NCBI RefSeq assembly: GCF_044324875.1
Contig: NZ_CP172185.1
Source of the DNA: Escherichia coli
GTDB taxonomy: Bacteria; Pseudomonadota; Gammaproteobacteria; Enterobacterales; Enterobacteriaceae
Reading direction: 5' to 3' (one strand)
DNA: 64,000 nucleotides
Position numbers and translations under genes: made by a program. Below, one piece after another: positions 1-9,845 of this stretch. Under the pieces are notes generated by a model. That model did no database searches and had not been told where the DNA came from. It saw only the letters and a program-made list of their open reading frames with translations. Numbering within the stretch: position 1 is the stretch's first letter; every line of letters starts with the position of its first letter.

Positions 1-1932
1 ACCGATACCGCGCCCCAGAGAAAGCAGAGCACCGCCCGGGGAAGTGAACGCAGCCAGCAGACCACCACGCAGCGTACCGAGTAGTCCGCGCACGCCACGA
101 AGCCGGACCGCAAGCCGTCCCGCACCGGTATCAAGACCGGCAAACAGCACACGCCAGCCGCCAATACCACTCATCGACCCACCGAGTACGCCGCGCAGCT
201 GCGTCAGTAACGGCAGCGCACGACCGAGGCCGGATGTGCCGGTCAGCAGGGAAAAGCCAAGACGCAGTTTTGCCAGCGGCCCCAGCAACACGCCGGTAGC
301 CAGTGACAGCGCCCCCGTGGCCGCAACCGCAGCCAGCAGTGCACCACCGGCAATCAGCAGTTGTTTTGTCAGTTCAGGGTGCGCCTGGGCCAGCGCGGTG
401 ACTTTCGCAATAACCCGGGTGAACGACTGCGTGACAGAACGCAGCGGCCCGTCAACGAGGTCAGCGACACGGATACGCAGCCCTTCCCATGCGCTGTTCA
501 GTGATTTCAGGTCGCCGTCCAGGTTGTCCGCCATGATTCTGGCGTTTTCTTCCAGTTCGCCGTTCGCTGCCTGAATCTCACGCGTCAGGCGCGGCAGGTT
601 TTTTTCGCCTGCCTGTTCAACCAGGCTCATCAGGGAGACATACGCCTCCTGCCCGGCAATATCTGAAAAGAACGAGACTTTTGCCGCGTTACCGTATTTA
701 CGGGTGGCCTGATACAGCTCATACAGGATATCTTCCATCGGGCGCATGTTCCCGTAAGCATCCTGCGTTTCCACGCCCAGCTGTTTCAGCGCCTTTGCTG
801 CCGCTTTAGGCGGGTTCACAAGGCGGGACAGACTGGAGCGCAGCGCCGTACCAGCATCACTGCCACGTATCCCCATCGACCCAAGCAACCCGGTCATGGC
901 TGCGGTCTGTTCAAGAGACAGACCGAGTGAGGCGGCGACCGGTCCCGTATATTTCATCGTCTCACCAAGCCCGCGCAGGTCGGTATTGGTGCGGGTGAAC
1001 GTTGCGGCCAGCGTGTCACCCACGCGGTTCATCTGGTCGGCAGACAACCCGAACTGCGTAAGGATATTTGAGCTGATATCGGCCGTCTGACCGAGGTCCA
1101 TGCCGCTGGCCGTTGCCAGATTCAGCACGCCGGGAAGAGCCGCCTGTATCGCCTGCGGCGTGAACCCCGCCATGGCAAGGAACGCCTGACCGCTGGCAGC
1201 ATCACCTGCGGTAAACTGCGTTTCGGAGCCGAGTTTAAGCGCCTGTTCGCGCAGCGCCTTAAACTGCGGACTGTTTTTGTCAATACGGGTCAGCGCCTGG
1301 ACGCGCGACATCTCCTTACCAAAACTGACCGCCGGTTGCAGGAAACGCCCGGCCGCATAGCCACCTGCCGCTGCCGTGCCGACTGCCGTAAATCCACCCG
1401 CTTTCAGTTTTCCCGCCATCTCCTGAGCGCGGAAATATTGCTGGCGTGCCTGCGTGACGCGTGCCAGAGTCTGCCGTTCACGTTCCAGCTGTTCGTTGTA
1501 TTGCTGTGTTCGCCGTATGGCCTGTTGAATGGTGTTGTCACTGCCGGAAAGCGCAATACCGTGACGCCGCAGCTCACCACCCAGTTCGCGCATTCGCTGA
1601 ACTTCACGCGCACGGACCTCATTGAGACGCTCAAGTTTGAGGCTCAAATCGTTCATCAGCTTTTTCTGTTTGTCAGACAGCACGGTTCCGGCGCGCTGAA
1701 TTTGCTGAAGTGCGCTTAACTGGCGTTGTGCCCGGGCAATGCCGTTTCCGGCCTTGTTTGCAGCCTCGCGGGCGCGATCAAATGAACGGGCGTGGCGTTC
1801 CAGGTTTTTGATCGCACCCTGCGTTCTCTGTATGGAGTCGCCAAGCTGGCCCATCATGCGACGGGCGTTTTCGGTGGGACGGGTCAGCCTGTCAACAGCG
1901 CTGAAGGCGACCCGTATATCAAGCGTTTTCAT
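1..1932 (-). CDS. P2-like phage tail tape measure protein (gpT-like), 3' end runs off the window
   Basis: ATG at 1932-1930 on the minus strand. Hand translation of 1621-1932 gives an uninterrupted, coiled-coil-like sequence (MKTLDIRVAFSAVDRLTRPTENARRMMGQLGDSIQ...). Position after E/E' matches P2 F-operon order. The plus-strand ORFs in the track here are antisense artefacts. Confidence 0.75.
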   Translation of the reverse strand, partial: MKTLDIRVAFSAVDRLTRPTENARRMMGQLGDSIQRTQGAIKNLERHARSFDRAREAANKAGNGIARAQRQLSALQQIQRAGTVLSDKQKKLMNDLSLKLERLNEVRAREVQRMRELGGELRRHGIALSGSDNTIQQAIRRTQQYNEQLERERQTLARVTQARQQYFRAQEMAGKLKAGGFTAVGTAAAGGYAAGRFLQPAVSFGKEMSRVQALTRIDKNSPQFKALREQALKLGSETQFTAGDAASGQAFLAMAGFTPQAIQAALPGVLNLATASGMDLGQTADISSNILTQFGLSADQMNRVGDTLAATFTRTNTDLRGLGETMKYTGPVAASLGLSLEQTAAMTGLLGSMGIRGSDAGTALRSSLSRLVNPPKAAAKALKQLGVETQDAYGNMRPMEDILYELYQATRKYGNAAKVSFFSDIAGQEAYVSLMSLVEQAGEKNLPRLTREIQAANGELEENARIMADNLDGDLKSLNSAWEGLRIRVADLVDGPLRSVTQSFTRVIAKVTALAQAHPELTKQLLIAGGALLAAVAATGALSLATGVLLGPLAKLRLGFSLLTGTSGLGRALPLLTQLRGVLGGSMSGIGGWRVLFAGLDTGAGRLAVRLRGVRGLLGTLRGGLLAAFTSPGGALLSLGRGIG

Positions 1933-2082
1933 GCTCTGCGTTCCCGCTGCGAAGGGCCGCCCGCTCACGCCAGGCGACCACCTCGCCGGGATCCATCAGG
2001 AAGATTTCAGCGGGAGACCAGTTGAAAATAACGGCGATATCCGCCACAAAGTCTTCAATATGCTCAAAGGGCACGACGGTTA

Positions 2083-2445
2083 TCAGCCTGCCGTCGCCGC
2101 CACGCTCTTCCCGCCAGAGTCCTGACCGGCCAAAAAATTAACCGCCACCCCGCACAGCTGAATAAAATCAGCGGACCCCATGCGCTTAAGCATAACCTCG
2201 TCCAGTCGCGGCGAAGTGACGCGCGGGAGTAACTCAAACATCGCGTCCGTTTTCATGTTCAGCACGTCAAGCAGTGACAGCCCGCGCAGTGAACCGGCCT
2301 GCTGTACAGCAGGCGTGATTTCCACATACGTGATTTTTTTGTTACCGAGCACAAGGGGTGTTTTCAGTGTCACGCCGCGCTCACTGGTCACGTCAGCCAC
2401 ATCAGCACCGTCAGTAACAGGGGCAACAACCGGATTTTCTTTCAT
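2083..2445 (-). CDS. P2-like tail assembly chaperone gpE; slippery TTTTTTG near the 3' end implies an E+E' frameshift product
   Basis: 120-aa ORF with GAGG ribosome-binding site before ATG 2445. Lies between the tube gene and the tape-measure gene. Heptamer TTTTTTG (minus-strand sense of 2131-2137) is 16 codons before the stop. Confidence 0.7.
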   Translation of the reverse strand: MKENPVVAPVTDGADVADVTSERGVTLKTPLVLGNKKITYVEITPAVQQAGSLRGLSLLDVLNMKTDAMFELLPRVTSPRLDEVMLKRMGSADFIQLCGVAVNFLAGQDSGGKSVAATAG

Positions 2446-2494
2446 GAATAAAACCTCAAATCAGGGGCGACGCCACGCGCCGCCGTGGAAAACA

Positions 2495-3013
2495 TTAACC
2501 ACCAAGACCAATCGCCGAGCGCACGCGGTCCGGGAAGACGCTTTTGCCGTCCTTGCGTTCGATGTGGTTCAGTAAATCAATCTCCAGCACCGGACGGTCG
2601 TTAATGCTGAGTTTGTAGTAGGTACTTTTGACCGCATAGGTGTGAGACGTGACCTCACCCTGTTTGGCCTCCCCGGTATCAATTTCCGTCACGCGACCGC
2701 GAAGCTCAATCTCGTACAGGTCACTCTGTTCTTCATCGTTGTAGTACTCACCGACAAAGCGCAGCAGCGTACCGTCAATCGTGCCGCCGTACTTGAGGAA
2801 CAGTTCGCGGGTCGGCCCGCCCATGGTGAAACTCGCATCCAGCGCGCCGTCATCCAGGCCAAGGTCGATATTTACTGCACCGGCCATACCACCACCGCGA
2901 TAGGCTTCCGTTTTACGGGTCAGTTTGGGGGGCGTGAAGCCGGTCACCCTGCCAATCTGGTTCACCCCGTCAGTAAACAGCGTGAACACCCTGAGATTTT
3001 TTGGTACGGCCAT
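2495..3013 (-). CDS. P2-like tail tube protein (gpFII-like)
   Basis: 172-aa ORF immediately downstream of the sheath gene; its ATG overlaps the sheath stop (TAATG). Size and position fit gpFII. Confidence 0.8.
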   Translation of the reverse strand: MAVPKNLRVFTLFTDGVNQIGRVTGFTPPKLTRKTEAYRGGGMAGAVNIDLGLDDGALDASFTMGGPTRELFLKYGGTIDGTLLRFVGEYYNDEEQSDLYEIELRGRVTEIDTGEAKQGEVTSHTYAVKSTYYKLSINDRPVLEIDLLNHIERKDGKSVFPDRVRSAIGLGG

Positions 3014-4296
3014 TAAGCACCTCCAAGCGTCGCAAATGCAGGACCAAAGAATTCATCAGTAAACGTCTGGTAAAGTTCCATATCCTCAAGCGGCGGAACG
3101 GGCGTGTACTTGTAGCGGATACGCACGCGTCCCTGACGAAGTTCCGTGGTGCTGTTATCCACCACGTCATACCAGCACTCCGCACCAACGAGACGTCCTG
3201 ACGTAACCAGCGCATCCAGTTTTGCGCGAATTGCGCTTAACACGTCTTTCACATTAGCAGGGGTCAGCGGGGCATCAATCGTTTCAAACTGCGCTTCCGC
3301 AACAGAATCAGCCAGCACCTGAGCGGTTCGCGTGTACACCTCAAAGATATACGCCTTCGTTTCCGGCGTACGGTTGCCCCAGAAGCGGAAACCGTTACGG
3401 CGAATGATGGTGGTGATTTCCTTGTTGTTGAGATTGTTGGCATCGCTGTCTTCGGACTGAAGGGACCAGAACACCCGGCTGGAAATACCCAGCACATTTC
3501 TTACCGGCACGTTGGACAGCGATTTATGCCAGCCCTGTTCGTGGTCAATACGTGCACGTAAACCGCAGGCGTACGCCGCAGCCGGGAAGACCTCATTAGC
3601 GCCGGATTTCGGGTTATAGGCGATGAAGTCAGGCCAGAGCAGCATAAGTTCGCGCTCGTTAAATCTGGCGCGGTAGCTGATTGCATCAGCGGGCTTCTTG
3701 CAGTTGTGACAGCCCGCGTAGACAAATGCGCGAAGTTTTTCTGCAATTACACACAGGGATTTTGTGACAGCTTCAGTATCCAGTCCGGGAGCTGCGATGA
3801 TGCGCGGACGGTAACCGATGGCATCATCCTGTTCAGCTATCAGAAGTGCATACATACCGGTATAATTACCGTCGCCATCCGTGCCACCAATGACATACTG
3901 GTCCTGCGTTTTGTGTGGGTATACAGGATGTGCATCTTCAGACTCATCAATACCAAAAAATGCCCTGTCTTCAGGATCCAGATGACCGAATGATGTAACT
4001 CCTGTATCCGGGGCGCCCTGAGAACTGGCATCAGGAACGCGCACCACAATCACCTTCGTGCTCACCTGGTCGGCGACAGCCTTAAGCGATTTGTAAAGCG
4101 TCCCCTTTGTGCCGGCCTTACCCAGCACATCACTGACGCGGGTCAGCAGTGTGGGTTTGTTCAGCGGGAACAGAGTTTCATCCGCGTCATCTGCCGTAGC
4201 CACAATACCAATAACACTGGAATCCACATCATTAATGGCGGTGGCAAGGCCGGTACTTTCCCTTACGCGCGCACCATGAAAGCGTGTTTCACTCAT
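3013..4296 (-). CDS. P2-like contractile tail sheath protein (gpFI-like)
   Basis: Track ORF 3013..4443; the likely true start is ATG 4296 (MSETRFHGARV...), preceded by AGGGTG. 427 aa with conserved sheath motifs (GFRFWGNRT, YTPVPPLE). Confidence 0.8.
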   Translation of the reverse strand: MSETRFHGARVRESTGLATAINDVDSSVIGIVATADDADETLFPLNKPTLLTRVSDVLGKAGTKGTLYKSLKAVADQVSTKVIVVRVPDASSQGAPDTGVTSFGHLDPEDRAFFGIDESEDAHPVYPHKTQDQYVIGGTDGDGNYTGMYALLIAEQDDAIGYRPRIIAAPGLDTEAVTKSLCVIAEKLRAFVYAGCHNCKKPADAISYRARFNERELMLLWPDFIAYNPKSGANEVFPAAAYACGLRARIDHEQGWHKSLSNVPVRNVLGISSRVFWSLQSEDSDANNLNNKEITTIIRRNGFRFWGNRTPETKAYIFEVYTRTAQVLADSVAEAQFETIDAPLTPANVKDVLSAIRAKLDALVTSGRLVGAECWYDVVDNSTTELRQGRVRIRYKYTPVPPLEDMELYQTFTDEFFGPAFATLGGA

Positions 4297-4369
4297 ATGT
4301 TTCACCCTTGTCTGGCTGGTTGATTTTGCGTAATCATTACCCACACACGCGGTAATCTCACCCCTTTGA

Positions 4370-4393
4370 TGTTGTCTCCTGACAGCGACAACA
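4370..4393. promoter_or_regulatory. Ogr/Delta-type late-promoter activator site (TGTTGTC-N10-GACAACA, containing TGT-N12-ACA)
   Basis: Perfect 7-bp inverted repeat with the P2 late-promoter TGT-N12-ACA geometry. Centred about 85 bp upstream of the FI ATG and about 77 bp upstream of the D ATG. Confidence 0.55.
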
Positions 4394-4457
4394 AAACAGC
4401 CATTCAACGCCGCTACGGTGCATGAAACCATTACAGAACGCACCAGGAGAGAACACC

Positions 4458-5549
4458 ATGAAAGAGCTGTCAGTTACCGTTCCGTCACCGGATATCGACA
4501 TCACCATCAACAACAACACACTGGCAAACCTCACAGAGCGACTCATGACGCTGACCCTGACGGATAACCGGGCCTTTGAGGCAGACCGCGTCACCCTCAC
4601 CCTTGACGATACGGACGGGCAGTTACAGTTGCCACCACGTGGCGCACGCCTGAGAGTGATGATTGGCTGGCGCGGGGAGGCGCTGGTTAACAAGGGTGTC
4701 TACATCGTTGATGAAGTGACGTGGGAAGGCCCGCCGGACAAACTGACCATCACCGCCAGCAGCGCCGATTTTCGCGAAGAGTTCAACGTGAAGCGTGAAG
4801 TCTCCTGGCACGACGTGACGGTAAAACAGGTTGTGTCAGCCATCGCGCACCGCTACGGCCTGAAAGCACAGATAAGCGATATCCTCATGGATATCGAAAT
4901 TGACCACGCAGACCAGACCGAAGAGAGTGATATATCCTTCCTGACCCGCATGGCTGAAATGCTGGGTGCGATTGCCACCGTAAAAAACGGCAGCCTGTTA
5001 TTCATTCTGCCGGGTGGCGGAACCGGGCCGGACGGAAAAGCCCTGCCTTCGTTCGCCATTACCCGCAGCAGCGGCGACAGTCACCGCTTTCGCATTGCTG
5101 ACCGTGATGCGTATACGGGGGTCCGGGCGCACTGGCTCGATCTGAAGTTCGGGCAAAAGAAAAAAGTGAACGTGAAGCGACGCAGGGAAGCCGGGAAACA
5201 GAAACAGGAGAAGAGCAGCAGCCGGGAAGGTGATTACATGGAAGGCGCGGAAGGTAACGTCTACGTTCTGCGCAGGACTTACCAGAATGAAGAAACCGCA
5301 CGACGTGCAGCAGCTGCAAAGTGGCAGGAACTACAGCGGGGCGCGGCATCATTCTCCATCACGCTGGCGCGCGGTCGTGCCGACCTGTACCCTGAAATGC
5401 ACGGCAGGGTAACAGGTTTTAAAAGCGAGGTGGACAATCAGGACTGGATTATTGCCAGGGTGGAGCACAGCATAGATGAAAGCGGCTTCACCACACAACT
5501 GGAGCTGGAAGCGAAAATCCCCGAATGGATAGCAGATTCAGGCGGATAA
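4458..5549 (+). CDS. P2-like tail protein D (gpD-like)
   Basis: Track ORF 4422..5549; the ATG at 4458 has an AGGAGA ribosome-binding site. Translation is gpD-like along its length (conserved SWHD, FLTR, DRxAYTGV, AKWxxLQRG, GFTTxLELE). Confidence 0.8.
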   Translation: MKELSVTVPSPDIDITINNNTLANLTERLMTLTLTDNRAFEADRVTLTLDDTDGQLQLPPRGARLRVMIGWRGEALVNKGVYIVDEVTWEGPPDKLTITASSADFREEFNVKREVSWHDVTVKQVVSAIAHRYGLKAQISDILMDIEIDHADQTEESDISFLTRMAEMLGAIATVKNGSLLFILPGGGTGPDGKALPSFAITRSSGDSHRFRIADRDAYTGVRAHWLDLKFGQKKKVNVKRRREAGKQKQEKSSSREGDYMEGAEGNVYVLRRTYQNEETARRAAAAKWQELQRGAASFSITLARGRADLYPEMHGRVTGFKSEVDNQDWIIARVEHSIDESGFTTQLELEAKIPEWIADSGG

Positions 5550-5592
5550 AATTAAAATGAGCCATCTCCACTCAGCCAGATAAGGAGAAGCC

Positions 5593-5844
5593 ATGTTCCG
5601 TTGTCCCCTGTGCGGTGCATCCGCACGTATCCGCACCAGTCGCAATGAAAATGATTCAGGCACAGTTCGCCTGAAGTACTACCAGTGCAATAACCTCGAA
5701 TGCGGGATCGGCTTTACCACACTGGAGGGTTTTAACAAATTCACATCAAAACGCGCCCCGTCGCCGCAGGGTACAGAGCGGATACCGTGGGAAGATTTTC
5801 CGGGATCTCACAGGGGGAATGCTCAGATGAATCTTGATATTTAA
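5593..5844 (+). CDS. ogr: Ogr-family zinc-finger late-gene transcription activator
   Basis: 83 aa. Begins MFRCPLCGASARIRTSRNE with CPLC...C(N)NLEC zinc-finger spacing. AAGGAGA ribosome-binding site. Confidence 0.85.
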   Translation: MFRCPLCGASARIRTSRNENDSGTVRLKYYQCNNLECGIGFTTLEGFNKFTSKRAPSPQGTERIPWEDFPGSHRGNAQMNLDI

Positions 5845-5990
5845 GAACAATAATCAGGTTGAGAGGACATCATAAGGCAAGTAGATTAACGGCAGATACT
5901 TTCCCGCAACCACGGGCAAGTATTTAATTATCCATGATGAAATATGACCTAAATTGTTTTTTGCCCGCCGGAAAGCGGGCATTTTTTTAT
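5845..5990 (+). repeat. Repeat unit A: sequence downstream of ogr ending in an intrinsic terminator (candidate phage right arm plus att core)
   Basis: Shares the core ggttgag...agtagattaac...ttatccatgat...gcccgcc-N-gcgggc-T7 with units B and C. Confidence 0.6.
5963..5988 (+). terminator. Intrinsic terminator, copy 1 (gcccgccggaaagcgggc + T7)
   Basis: GC stem-loop followed by a T-run on the plus strand. Confidence 0.75.
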
Positions 5991-6202
5991 TCTTTTGTGG
6001 TTATGGGGTCATCAGGAACCACGTGCAGATTATATTTTTGTTTTTTTGGCGTTCCTCCGGCAGCAACGAGTTCATCAATAAGACACTGACACGCCTGAAC
6101 ATCCCGGGCATGTCTTAGTTTCACCTTTATTGATTTAACCTTATCCTCACCGGAGGAGAAATGCAGTTCAATCTCAATATCGTTTCTTCGGAACAATCTC
6201 AT
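5987..6202 (-). CDS. Hypothetical small protein (71 aa) in an AT-rich islet
   Basis: ATG at 6202 preceded by a GGGGGG ribosome-binding site. AT-rich promoter-like sequence upstream, with TATAAT-like hexamers. No family recognised by eye. Confidence 0.45.
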   Translation of the reverse strand: MRLFRRNDIEIELHFSSGEDKVKSIKVKLRHARDVQACQCLIDELVAAGGTPKKQKYNLHVVPDDPITTKE

Positions 6203-6429
6203 ACGCCCCCCTGAATATATCAGAAATGCTAGTATCGAAAAATGAGAAAACAGTTAGACAGGAGAAACATATTAACACAAATCATTTATACCTATAGATG
6301 AAATTATAATTTCATTCATGAATATGATAGATAACTATATTGTGAACAAAATGAAAAATGGCTAAATTAAAAATGGGCATGGAGGAATGCCTCGTAATCA
6401 GTAATACATGATCCATACTTCCTTGTTTT

Positions 6430-6455
6430 GCCCGCCGGAAAGCGGGCATTTTTTT
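6430..6455 (+). terminator. Intrinsic terminator, copy 2 (hairpin identical to copy 1)
   Basis: gcccgccggaaagcgggc + T7. Together with copy 1 it forms a near-identical ~30-bp direct repeat flanking the AT-rich islet. Confidence 0.75.
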
Positions 6456-6657
6456 GGCGGTTACCATCGCCTCACCTTCCTGGTTCACACAAAGCAACCC
6501 TGATTTTCCATGAAAACTTCAGGGTTGAGCCAAAAGCACAAAGACAGTAGATTAACCAAGGGTACCCGCCACCTGCCAACAGGAACGGTATCCAGTACGT
6601 ATTAATGACTGACAATTCACATTGCTGTTTTGCCCGCCAGAAGGTGGGCATTTTTTT
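6456..6657 (+). repeat. Repeat unit B: paralogue of units A and C, ending in terminator copy 3
   Basis: Aligns by eye with unit C over about 200 bp. Contains a degenerate ogr 3'-end-like segment (ttcaca...gattttcc). Confidence 0.6.
6632..6657 (+). terminator. Intrinsic terminator, copy 3 (gcccgccagaaggtgggc + T7)
   Basis: GC stem-loop followed by a T-run. Confidence 0.7.
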
Positions 6658-6861
6658 GGCAGTTATCATGGACGCACCTTCATGACACATATTAAGCAGA
6701 CCTGATTTTTCCATGAAAAATTCATGGTTGAGACAAAAGCACAAAAACAGTAGATTAACCACGGGTGCCTGCCACCTGACAACAGGAAGGGGTGTCCATT
6801 ATCCATGATATACAAACGAAAAGTCTTGTCTTTTGCCCGCCGTTGCGCGGGCTTTTTTTTT
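6658..6861 (+). repeat. Repeat unit C: paralogue of units A and B, ending in terminator copy 4
   Basis: Same architecture as unit B. Confidence 0.6.
6835..6861 (+). terminator. Intrinsic terminator, copy 4 (gcccgccgttgcgcgggc + T9)
   Basis: GC stem-loop followed by a T-run. Confidence 0.7.
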
Positions 6862-6890
6862 GCCACCCTCACCAGTGAGGGTACCATCAT

Positions 6891-7112
6891 TCAGAGGCGC
6901 GTAAGCCACCCGGCGTTAACATCCTGCCCGTCAACCCTGACCGCAGAGTCTGAACGGCAGGCACCGGAAGCAGTACCAAAAACACCTCTGACAAGTTCCG
7001 CCACCTTCCCGATATCATCAGGCGCCACATTCCTCACCTCGACAGTGATCCGTGGCGTACCATCATCGTTAACAAGCGTGGCTTTAAGGCTGGTACGACG
7101 GGCAAATAACAT
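6891..7112 (-). CDS. Hypothetical small protein (73 aa)
   Basis: ATG at 7112 with an AGGGAGG ribosome-binding site about 9 nt upstream. GC-rich, between repeat unit C and the copA promoter. No family recognised. Confidence 0.45.
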   Translation of the reverse strand: MLFARRTSLKATLVNDDGTPRITVEVRNVAPDDIGKVAELVRGVFGTASGACRSDSAVRVDGQDVNAGWLTRL

Positions 7113-7172
7113 CAACACCCCCTCCCTTCGGTTCGTTGCACTGGCAGCACGATACCACCAGGAAAAAGAAAA

Positions 7173-7203
7173 GCCCACAACGTCAGGATTGCGGGCTTTT
7201 TTT
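7173..7203 (+). terminator. Intrinsic terminator, copy 5 (gcccacaacgtcaggattgcgggc + T7), related to copies 1-4
   Basis: Stem-loop followed by a T-run, directly upstream of the copA promoter. Confidence 0.65.
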
Positions 7204-7269
7204 CTTCAAAAATGGACACTACGTGGACACTGATTAAATAATCCTTTCTTAATCAGACTGTTAAAATGC

Positions 7270-7300
7270 TTGACCTTCCCCTTGCTGGAAGGTTTAACCT
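7270..7300 (+). promoter_or_regulatory. copA promoter with CueR (MerR-type) operator
   Basis: -35 TTGACC followed by the dyad CCTTCC-N7-GGAAGG within a long spacer, the known PcopA/CueR architecture. Confidence 0.8.
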
Positions 7301-7340
7301 TTATCACAGCCAGTCAAAACTGTCTTAAAAGGAGTGTTTT

Positions 7341-9845
7341 ATGTCACAAACTATCGACCTGACCCTGGACGGCCTGTCCTGCGGTCACTGCGTTAAACGC
7401 GTGAAAGAAAGTCTCGAACAGCGCCCGGATGTTGAGCAGGCGGATGTGTCTGTCACTGAAGCGCACGTTACCGGGACTGCCAGTGCAGAACAGCTGATCG
7501 AAACCATCAAACAAGCGGGTTATGACGCATCTGTAAGCCACCCAAAGGCTAAACCGCTGGCGGAGTCATCAATCCCGTCGGAAGCACTGACAGCGGTTTC
7601 TGAGGCGCTTCCGGCAGCGACCGCCGATGACGATGACAGCCAGCAGTTGCTGCTGAGCGGCATGAGCTGCGCCAGCTGTGTCACCCGCGTACAAAATGCG
7701 TTGCAAAGCGTACCGGGCGTCACTCAGGCACGGGTAAACCTGGCGGAGCGTACTGCGCTGGTGATGGGCAGTGCCTCCCCACAAGATTTAGTGCAGGCGG
7801 TGGAAAAAGCGGGCTACGGCGCGGAAGCGATTGAAGATGACGCTAAACGCCGCGAGCGCCAGCAGGAAACCGCCGTCGCTACGATGAAGCGCTTCCGCTG
7901 GCAGGCAATTGTCGCACTGGCGGTGGGTATCCCGGTGATGGTCTGGGGGATGATCGGCGATAACATGATGGTCACCGCTGACAACCGCAGCTTGTGGTTA
8001 GTTATCGGCCTGATAACCCTGGCAGTGATGGTTTTCGCCGGCGGCCATTTTTACCGTAGTGCATGGAAAAGCCTGCTGAACGGTGCAGCGACGATGGATA
8101 CGCTGGTGGCGCTGGGTACTGGCGTGGCGTGGCTCTATTCGATGAGCGTCAACCTGTGGCCGCAGTGGTTCCCGATGGAAGCGCGACATCTTTATTACGA
8201 AGCCAGCGCGATGATTATCGGTCTGATCAATCTCGGTCATATGCTGGAAGCGCGCGCACGTCAGCGTTCTTCAAAGGCGCTGGAGAAATTACTCGATTTA
8301 ACCCCACCGACGGCGCGCCTGGTCACCGACGAAGGTGAAAAAAGCGTGCCGCTGGCGGAAGTGCAGCCAGGTATGTTGCTGCGCCTGACGACCGGCGATC
8401 GCGTGCCGGTAGATGGCGAGATTACCCAGGGCGAAGCATGGCTGGATGAAGCGATGCTGACGGGCGAACCAATCCCGCAGCAAAAAGGCGAAGGCGATAG
8501 CGTCCATGCCGGGACAGTGGTACAGGACGGCAGTGTGCTGTTTCGTGCCAGTGCGGTCGGCAGCCATACTACGCTGTCACGAATCATTCGCATGGTGCGC
8601 CAGGCCCAGAGCAGCAAGCCTGAAATCGGCCAACTGGCGGATAAAATCTCCGCTGTGTTTGTGCCGGTGGTGGTAGTCATTGCGCTGATCAGTGCGGCAA
8701 TCTGGTATTTCTTTGGTCCGGCACCGCAGATTGTCTATACCCTGGTGATTGCCACCACGGTGCTGATTATCGCCTGTCCGTGTGCGCTGGGACTGGCGAC
8801 GCCGATGTCGATTATTTCGGGCGTCGGGCGGGCGGCTGAGTTTGGTGTGCTGGTGCGGGACGCCGACGCGCTGCAACGCGCCAGTACGCTCGACACCGTG
8901 GTGTTCGATAAAACCGGGACGCTGACCGAAGGGAAGCCGCAGGTTGTCGCAGTAAAAACATTTGCTGATGTTGATGAAGCGCAAGCATTGCGTCTGGCGG
9001 CGGCGCTGGAGCAAGGTTCCAGCCACCCGCTGGCACGGGCGATCCTCGATAAAGCAGGTGATATGCAGCTACCGCAGGTCAACGGTTTCCGCACATTGCG
9101 CGGGCTGGGTGTGAGCGGTGAAGCTGAAGGTCATGCGGTATTGCTGGGCAATCAGGCGCTGTTAAATGACCAGCAAGTTGATACTAAAGCGATTGAGGCA
9201 GATATTTCAGCTCAGGCATCGCAAGGTGCAACGCCTGTGCTGCTGGCGGTTGACGGGAAAGCGGTAGCCCTGCTGGCTGTACGCGATCCGTTGCGTAGTG
9301 ATAGCGTGGCGGCGCTGCAACGCCTGCATAAAGCGGGATATCGTCTGGTGATGTTGACCGGGGATAACCCAACCACCGCCAATGCGATCGCCAAAGAAGC
9401 AGGGATTGATGAGGTGATAGCCGGCGTGCTGCCGGACGGTAAAGCCGAAGCGATCAAACGTCTTCAAAGTGAAGGACGTCAGGTGGCAATGGTGGGCGAC
9501 GGCATTAACGATGCGCCAGCGCTGGCTCAGGCGGATGTCGGTATTGCGATGGGTGGCGGCAGTGATGTTGCCATTGAAACCGCGGCGATTACCCTGATGC
9601 GCCATAGCCTGATGGGTGTTGCAGATGCGCTCGCGATTTCCCGCGCAACGCTGCGCAATATGAAGCAGAACCTGCTCGGTGCGTTTATCTACAACAGCAT
9701 TGGTATTCCGGTCGCCGCCGGTATTTTGTGGCCGTTCACTGGAACACTGCTTAACCCGGTGGTTGCCGGAGCGGCAATGGCGCTCTCGTCGATTACCGTA
9801 GTGAGTAACGCCAACCGGTTACTGCGGTTTAAACCGAAAGAGTGA
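7341..9845 (+). CDS. copA: Cu(I)-translocating P-type ATPase
   Basis: 834 aa. Two N-terminal CxxC metal-binding domains, CPC motif, DKTGT phosphorylation site. Confidence 0.97.

Follow-up and report, generated by a model that had tools for sequence, protein, structure and literature searches.

We report that the copA gene in a 64,000-nucleotide stretch of Escherichia coli DNA (contig NZ_CP172185.1; the whole stretch is called the window below) almost certainly carries the established E. coli -1 programmed ribosomal frameshift cassette in fully intact form, as judged from its sequence. Such a cassette has been described before and occurs in nearly all E. coli, and the one in this strain is ordinary. 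Its parts are a slippery heptamer, C_CCA_AAG, at positions 7541-7547 of the + strand, an almost immediate stop codon in the -1 frame and a downstream pseudoknot, all of them lying within the reading frame of the copper pump.

The copA coding sequence (7341-9845, + strand) was called as an open reading frame of 834 aa whose zero-frame product is a Cu(I)-exporting P1B-type ATPase. It matches the equivalog model NCBIfam NF007952 ('copper-exporting P-type ATPase CopA') over residues 1-834 with 1747.7 bits (cut-off 1316), and its neighbourhood shows synteny with ybaP together with the K-12 promoter. The 500 nt around the heptamer are matched in 5,422 of 5,426 complete E. coli genomes at 96.6-100% identity, always under an annotated copA. 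Codons 67 to 71 read CAC (7539-41), CCA (7542-44), AAG (7545-47), GCT and AAA, encoding H-P-K-A-K, so the heptamer falls over His67-Pro68-Lys69 in the X_XXY_YYZ phase that tandem tRNA slippage needs. The 20 nt preceding 7541 show no Shine-Dalgarno-like motif.

Read in the -1 frame from 7541, the sequence continues CCC AAA GGC TAA, that is P-K-G-stop, with the TAA at 7550-7552 (+ strand). The resulting product, CopA(Z), would be 70 aa long, running from M1 to K69 and G70 and ending in HPKG. Its coding span, join(7341..7547, 7547..7552), covers 212 nt (7341-7552, + strand), like the joined coding sequence YP_009518752.1 annotated in K-12. CopA(Z) thus comprises metal-binding domain 1 plus Gly70, and it includes the CxxC copper-binding motif of that domain, Cys14-Gly-His-Cys17 (7380-7391, + strand). 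Over residues 5-65 it matches models of the CopZ/HMA group (NF047957 with 60.4 bits, NF033794 with 39.4 bits), and by sequence homology it matches HMA domains solved in the PDB, for example 2roe and 3fry. The CopZ families have cut-offs of 85-95 bits, and CopA(Z) stays below them, its best score being 60.4 bits where 85 would be needed; a domain of CopA is expected to score in this way.

The RefSeq record of K-12 MG1655 lists two copA products, the ATPase and the joined 212-nt coding sequence described as a 'soluble Cu(+) chaperone' (YP_009518752.1). By pairwise alignment, the window is identical to K-12 over 7453-7701, a stretch reaching from 88 nt before the heptamer to 154 nt after it, and whatever stimulatory structure K-12 has there must be intact here too. 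Apart from this stretch, the first 540 nt hold an extra A, two synonymous changes upstream, G for A at 7452 and a synonymous change near 7701. The extra A lies in the copA 5' UTR just upstream of the Shine-Dalgarno sequence (AAAA at 7327-7330, AAA in K-12). The substitution at 7452 puts Val38 in place of Ile38 in both CopA and CopA(Z); it is the sole residue by which CopA(Z) differs from its K-12 counterpart, and the nascent CopA chain is identical at the other 68 of 69 residues. Because the whole cassette is identical to that of K-12, its function probably transfers from there.

These results bear on a sequence-only reading of the same DNA, which had placed CCCAAAG at 7541-7547 within copA codons 67-69 (HPKAK) and had called the site intact. 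Position and phase confirm the placement, and the site is unchanged relative to K-12. That reading had also named two things to look for, an early end of the -1 frame and conservation of the downstream region: the TAA at 7550-7552 follows the heptamer after a single Gly codon, and identity to K-12 is 100% over 7453-7701.

A heptamer of this composition could be a by-product of coding His-Pro-Lys, with no biologically meaningful frameshift. The bare CCCAAAG is indeed not over-represented, with 5 copies in the 64-kb window where shuffles lead one to expect 8.3, and the Pro-Lys pair is conserved in the protein. With no enrichment of the heptamer by itself, the argument has to come from its phase, the stop, the structure and the conservation. 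Among the five copies, the one at 7541-7547 alone combines slippery phase in a long open reading frame, a -1 stop three codons on and strong interleaved downstream stems, for which its score is 46 while the other four copies score 21-30.

Conservation was followed by scanning a collection of species-representative genomes with CopA residues 1-200, which returned 79 loci, 61 of them from Enterobacterales (L003-L063). All 61 have an in-frame CCCAAAG or CCCAAAA and, at a distance of exactly three codons, a TAA or TGA in the -1 frame, which is followed by CCGCUG or a covarying form of it. The cassette is absent from the non-Enterobacterales loci of the scan, which show 30-38% identity. All 61 Enterobacterales loci use CCA rather than CCN, and the -1 stop keeps its exact distance although zero-frame codons 70-71 change, encoding A-K, A-E, T-E, S-E, P-E, F-E and others; both observations speak against coding constraint as the origin of the heptamer. 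So does codon choice. Codons of 28 distinct Enterobacteriaceae sequences were aligned, and among pairs with the same amino acid we counted those using different codons; the fraction of synonymous differences was 0.46 over codons 1-66, 0.068 over codons 67-92 and 0.37-0.42 over codons 93-200. The block of suppressed synonymous variation, codons 66-92 (7536-7616, + strand), coincides with the span that begins at the heptamer and closes with the 3' arm of stem 2. Codons 66-73 in particular are almost without synonymous variation across the 28 species, against 0.37-0.46 in the flanks. Within E. coli, the 90-nt cassette at 7531-7620 is identical in 5,341 of 5,422 complete genomes, whereas identity over the 500 nt around it is 95-99% in most of them, and the 30-mer covering the heptamer, the stop and the stem-1 arm is found exactly in 5,412 of the 5,422. 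The sequence is moreover identical to that of K-12, in which frameshifting was shown and replicated (PMC9548414). With these data in hand, we regard an origin of the heptamer as a mere coding by-product as extremely improbable.

The structural part of the cassette was derived independently from the sequence by enumerating stems over 7548-7625, and the pseudoknot described here is a prediction made independently of any published drawing. Stem 1 pairs AAACCGCUG at 7551-7559 (conserved core 7553/7554-7559) with CAGCGGUUU at 7591-7599 (conserved core 7591-7596/7597), and stem 2, identified by enumeration and covariation, pairs GUCGGAAGC at 7577-7585 with GCUUCCGGC at 7607-7615, all on the + strand. 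Interleaved, the two 9-bp helices make up an H-type pseudoknot that begins 3-6 nt after the heptamer; its loops measure 17, 5 and 7 nt. As isolated hairpins, stem 1 has a predicted energy of -12.1 kcal/mol and stem 2 of -14.2 kcal/mol. When interleaved stem pairs starting 3-9 nt after the heptamer are scored, none of 1,000 dinucleotide-preserving shuffles reaches the observed value of 46 (shuffle mean 19.9, maximum 45). A nested-only minimum free energy fold of the 93 nt downstream (7548-7640) gave no significant stability (z = -1.35) and is uninformative because such folds cannot represent pseudoknots. No Rfam family matched 7250-7750. An alternative stem, CUGGCGG at 7557-63 with CCGUCGG at 7575-81 (-9.4 kcal/mol), competes with stem 1.

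Covariation was assessed in a structure-blind MAFFT alignment of 60 distinct Enterobacterales sequences, scored against both derived stems. Standard pairs form in 84.1% of cells, a share that drops to 19-51% once the partners are slid along by 1-3 columns; 11 of 18 pairs change on both sides, and none of 500 shuffles reaches the observed value on any measure, the counts being inflated by shared ancestry, which the slid controls have in the same degree while scoring far lower. All 60 sequences form the six core pairs of stem 1, with compensatory variants in Pantoea (CCGUUG/CAACGG), at locus L063 (CCGCCG/CGGCGG) and at locus L038 (ACGCUG/CAGCGU). For the outer six base pairs of stem 2 the paired fraction is 95.8%, with both partners varying in four of them. 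Conservation does not extend to the A-U pairs at 7551-7552, which places the start of the conserved structure at 7553/7554, 5-6 nt past the heptamer.

Loop 1 (7560-7576, codons 74-78) belongs to neither stem and nevertheless shows synonymous variation of only 0.08-0.2, against 0.37-0.46 in the flanks. This constraint, which the stems alone leave unexplained, would fit an RNA structure at 7551-7615 whose main task is a different one, for instance the formation or stabilisation of a short 5' transcript of copA, with stimulation of frameshifting as a secondary effect. The title of Drees 2017, which reportedly has 'differential transcript formation' and frameshifting acting together, pairs the two in the same sense. 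The distance of 5-6 nt between the heptamer and the conserved core is, on the other hand, typical of -1 stimulators. A search of the + strand for a terminator that might explain the short transcript of Drees 2017 found no intrinsic-terminator-like site near the element, which weakens the idea of a transcript-forming structure and neither supports nor excludes the transcript itself. Moreover, S1 and S2 variants of the copA pseudoknot shift frameshifting and ribosome stalling together (PMC6182138). We therefore consider it very improbable that frameshift stimulation is the secondary role of this structure; a contribution to transcript formation would in any case complement frameshifting instead of excluding it.

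The comparison across species also revealed CopA proteins with three metal-binding domains in Serratia, Pectobacterium, Brenneria, Dickeya, Yersinia, Photorhabdus, Xenorhabdus, Hafnia, Edwardsiella and Budvicia (loci L036, L041, L043-L047, L049-L052, L054, L055 and L060-L062), in which the heptamer lies about 400 nt past the copA start. There the cassette follows the second domain, giving a predicted product of 131-141 aa with two CxxC sites, while the predicted products of Rahnella and Mixta contain one domain. The cassette tracks the linker before the last metal-binding domain. We tentatively suggest, as a possibility we rate well below even, that it may belong to the linker before the last, pump-proximal domain rather than to 'domain 1', and that the constraint on loop 1 hints at a further stimulator element.

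Upstream of the gene lies what we take to be the copA promoter (7270-7300, + strand), a MerR-type arrangement of a TTGACC -35 box, a CueR dyad (ACCTTCC-N7-GGAAGGT) within a 19-bp spacer and a TAACCT -10 box. It is identical to K-12 from 7269 through the -10 box. A generic promoter scan cannot detect it because such a scan allows only spacers of 16-18 bp.

The window also contains, at 1-7268, the end of a P2-family prophage of about 35 kb inserted between glsA and copA, with the junction at 7268/7269. Late control gene D and ogr/Delta lie near its copA end, and its integrase lies by glsA at the far end, as seen in strain Ch1 (L082 158-35,8xx). The 20-bp att core CTTGACCTTCCCCTTGCTGG (7269-7288) coincides with the copA -35 box and the left arm of the CueR operator; a second copy sits at the far end of the prophage, and with the copy next to copA the promoter stays intact from the -35 box downstream. 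This prophage-copA junction is common to only 5 of 5,426 complete E. coli genomes (four from chicken, one from human). At the prophage end, 6424-6863 holds a tandem direct repeat of about 2.2 units of roughly 202 bp with 80-91% identity, each unit starting with a GC-rich, terminator-like hairpin and a run of T after it (GCCCGCCGGAAAGCGGGC-T7); a search of this repeat against Rfam gave no significant match, only sub-threshold terminator-like ones.

The cassette could be intact and its behaviour in this lineage still differ, if I38V, the extra A in the 5' UTR or the prophage at the -35 box altered the ratio of CopA to CopA(Z) or the inducibility by copper. All three are real differences from K-12, and the nascent chain is a reported stimulator of frameshifting (PMC7558416). 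I38V is, however, a conservative change, and its position 31 residues ahead of the P-site codon puts it at the distal end of the exit tunnel or past it. From the -35 box through the CueR dyad and the -10 box the promoter is unchanged, and over 7269-7740 many E. coli genomes match the window at 99-100% identity. We see only a small chance that the lineage departs from K-12 in this way, and return to an intact cassette with the activity described in K-12.

On that reading, most ribosomes would pass through the site and complete the 834-aa copper pump. By analogy with the general mechanism of -1 frameshifting, the others, with tRNAs on CCA-AAG (7542-7547), would be held by the downstream H-type pseudoknot while the tRNAs re-pair one base back on CCC-AAA. 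The shifted frame would then be read through GGC to the TAA at 7550-52, releasing the 70-aa CopA(Z), which as in K-12 would act as a soluble Cu(I) chaperone. With CopA and CopA(Z) made from one CueR-controlled mRNA, pump and chaperone would be induced together.

The -1 frameshift giving CopA(Z) from K-12 copA was reportedly described by Meydan et al. in 2017 (Mol Cell 65:207) and by Drees et al. in 2017 (Mol Microbiol 106:635). Efficient -1 frameshifting in E. coli copA yields the 70-aa CopA(Z) chaperone (PMC7558416, PMC9548414, PMC5009743, PMC6771820, PMC10861913), and three stimulators have been named for it: the slippery sequence, the pseudoknot and the nascent chain (PMC7558416). In K-12, CopA(Z) serves as a soluble Cu(I) chaperone and helps cells survive high copper (PMC7558416, PMC9548414), and ribosome-profiling density falls after the site (PMC7558416, PMC9548414, PMC5009743, PMC10861913). 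Frameshifting in copA was independently confirmed by Drees 2017, and the E. coli result was upheld; the extension of the original paper to ATP7B was refuted, and only that part (PMC9548414). In single-molecule experiments, the effects of the copA pseudoknot and its S1 and S2 variants on frameshifting went hand in hand with ribosome stalling (PMC6182138). This literature, together with the -1 stop and the K-12 coding sequence, supports the further proposal of the sequence-only reading that a programmed -1 frameshift gives a metallochaperone of about 70 aa from the first metal-binding domain.

The site matters mainly for annotation. In the closest genome, that of strain Ch1 (L002 3101-5605), the automated RefSeq annotation (PGAP) holds only the 834-aa copA coding sequence, whereas the curated K-12 record has both products; a 70-aa copper chaperone would stay unannotated here. 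The comparative data also give independent support to the published mechanism, through compensatory changes in both stems, a sharply delimited dip in synonymous variation and near-fixation in about 5,400 E. coli genomes.

The closest known system is copA/CopA(Z) of K-12 itself, with the same gene, the same heptamer, the same -1 stop, the same 70-aa product length and the same CueR promoter from the -35 box on; the window differs in that phage DNA upstream of the -35 box replaces the K-12 copA-glsA spacer. Stand-alone metallochaperones of the CopZ/Atx1 type resemble CopA(Z) in being HMA-type domains of about 70 aa with a CxxC Cu(I) site. They have a gene of their own, whereas CopA(Z) is encoded within the gene of the pump and released by recoding. 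Going by its sequence, CopA(Z) would work like CopZ yet stands outside the stand-alone families, in view of its location inside copA and its score below their cut-offs. Among frameshifted genes, dnaX is a chromosomal, non-mobile gene like copA, in which a -1 slip yields a truncated functional product beside the full-length one. It uses the heptamer A_AAA_AAG, flanked by a Shine-Dalgarno-like stimulator upstream and a stem-loop downstream, whereas copA has C_CCA_AAG, a pseudoknot and a nascent-chain effect. The dnaX system, which makes tau and gamma of DNA polymerase III, is likewise chromosomal, with an X_XXY_YYZ heptamer ending in AAG, a near-immediate stop and a functional truncated protein (PMC10861913).
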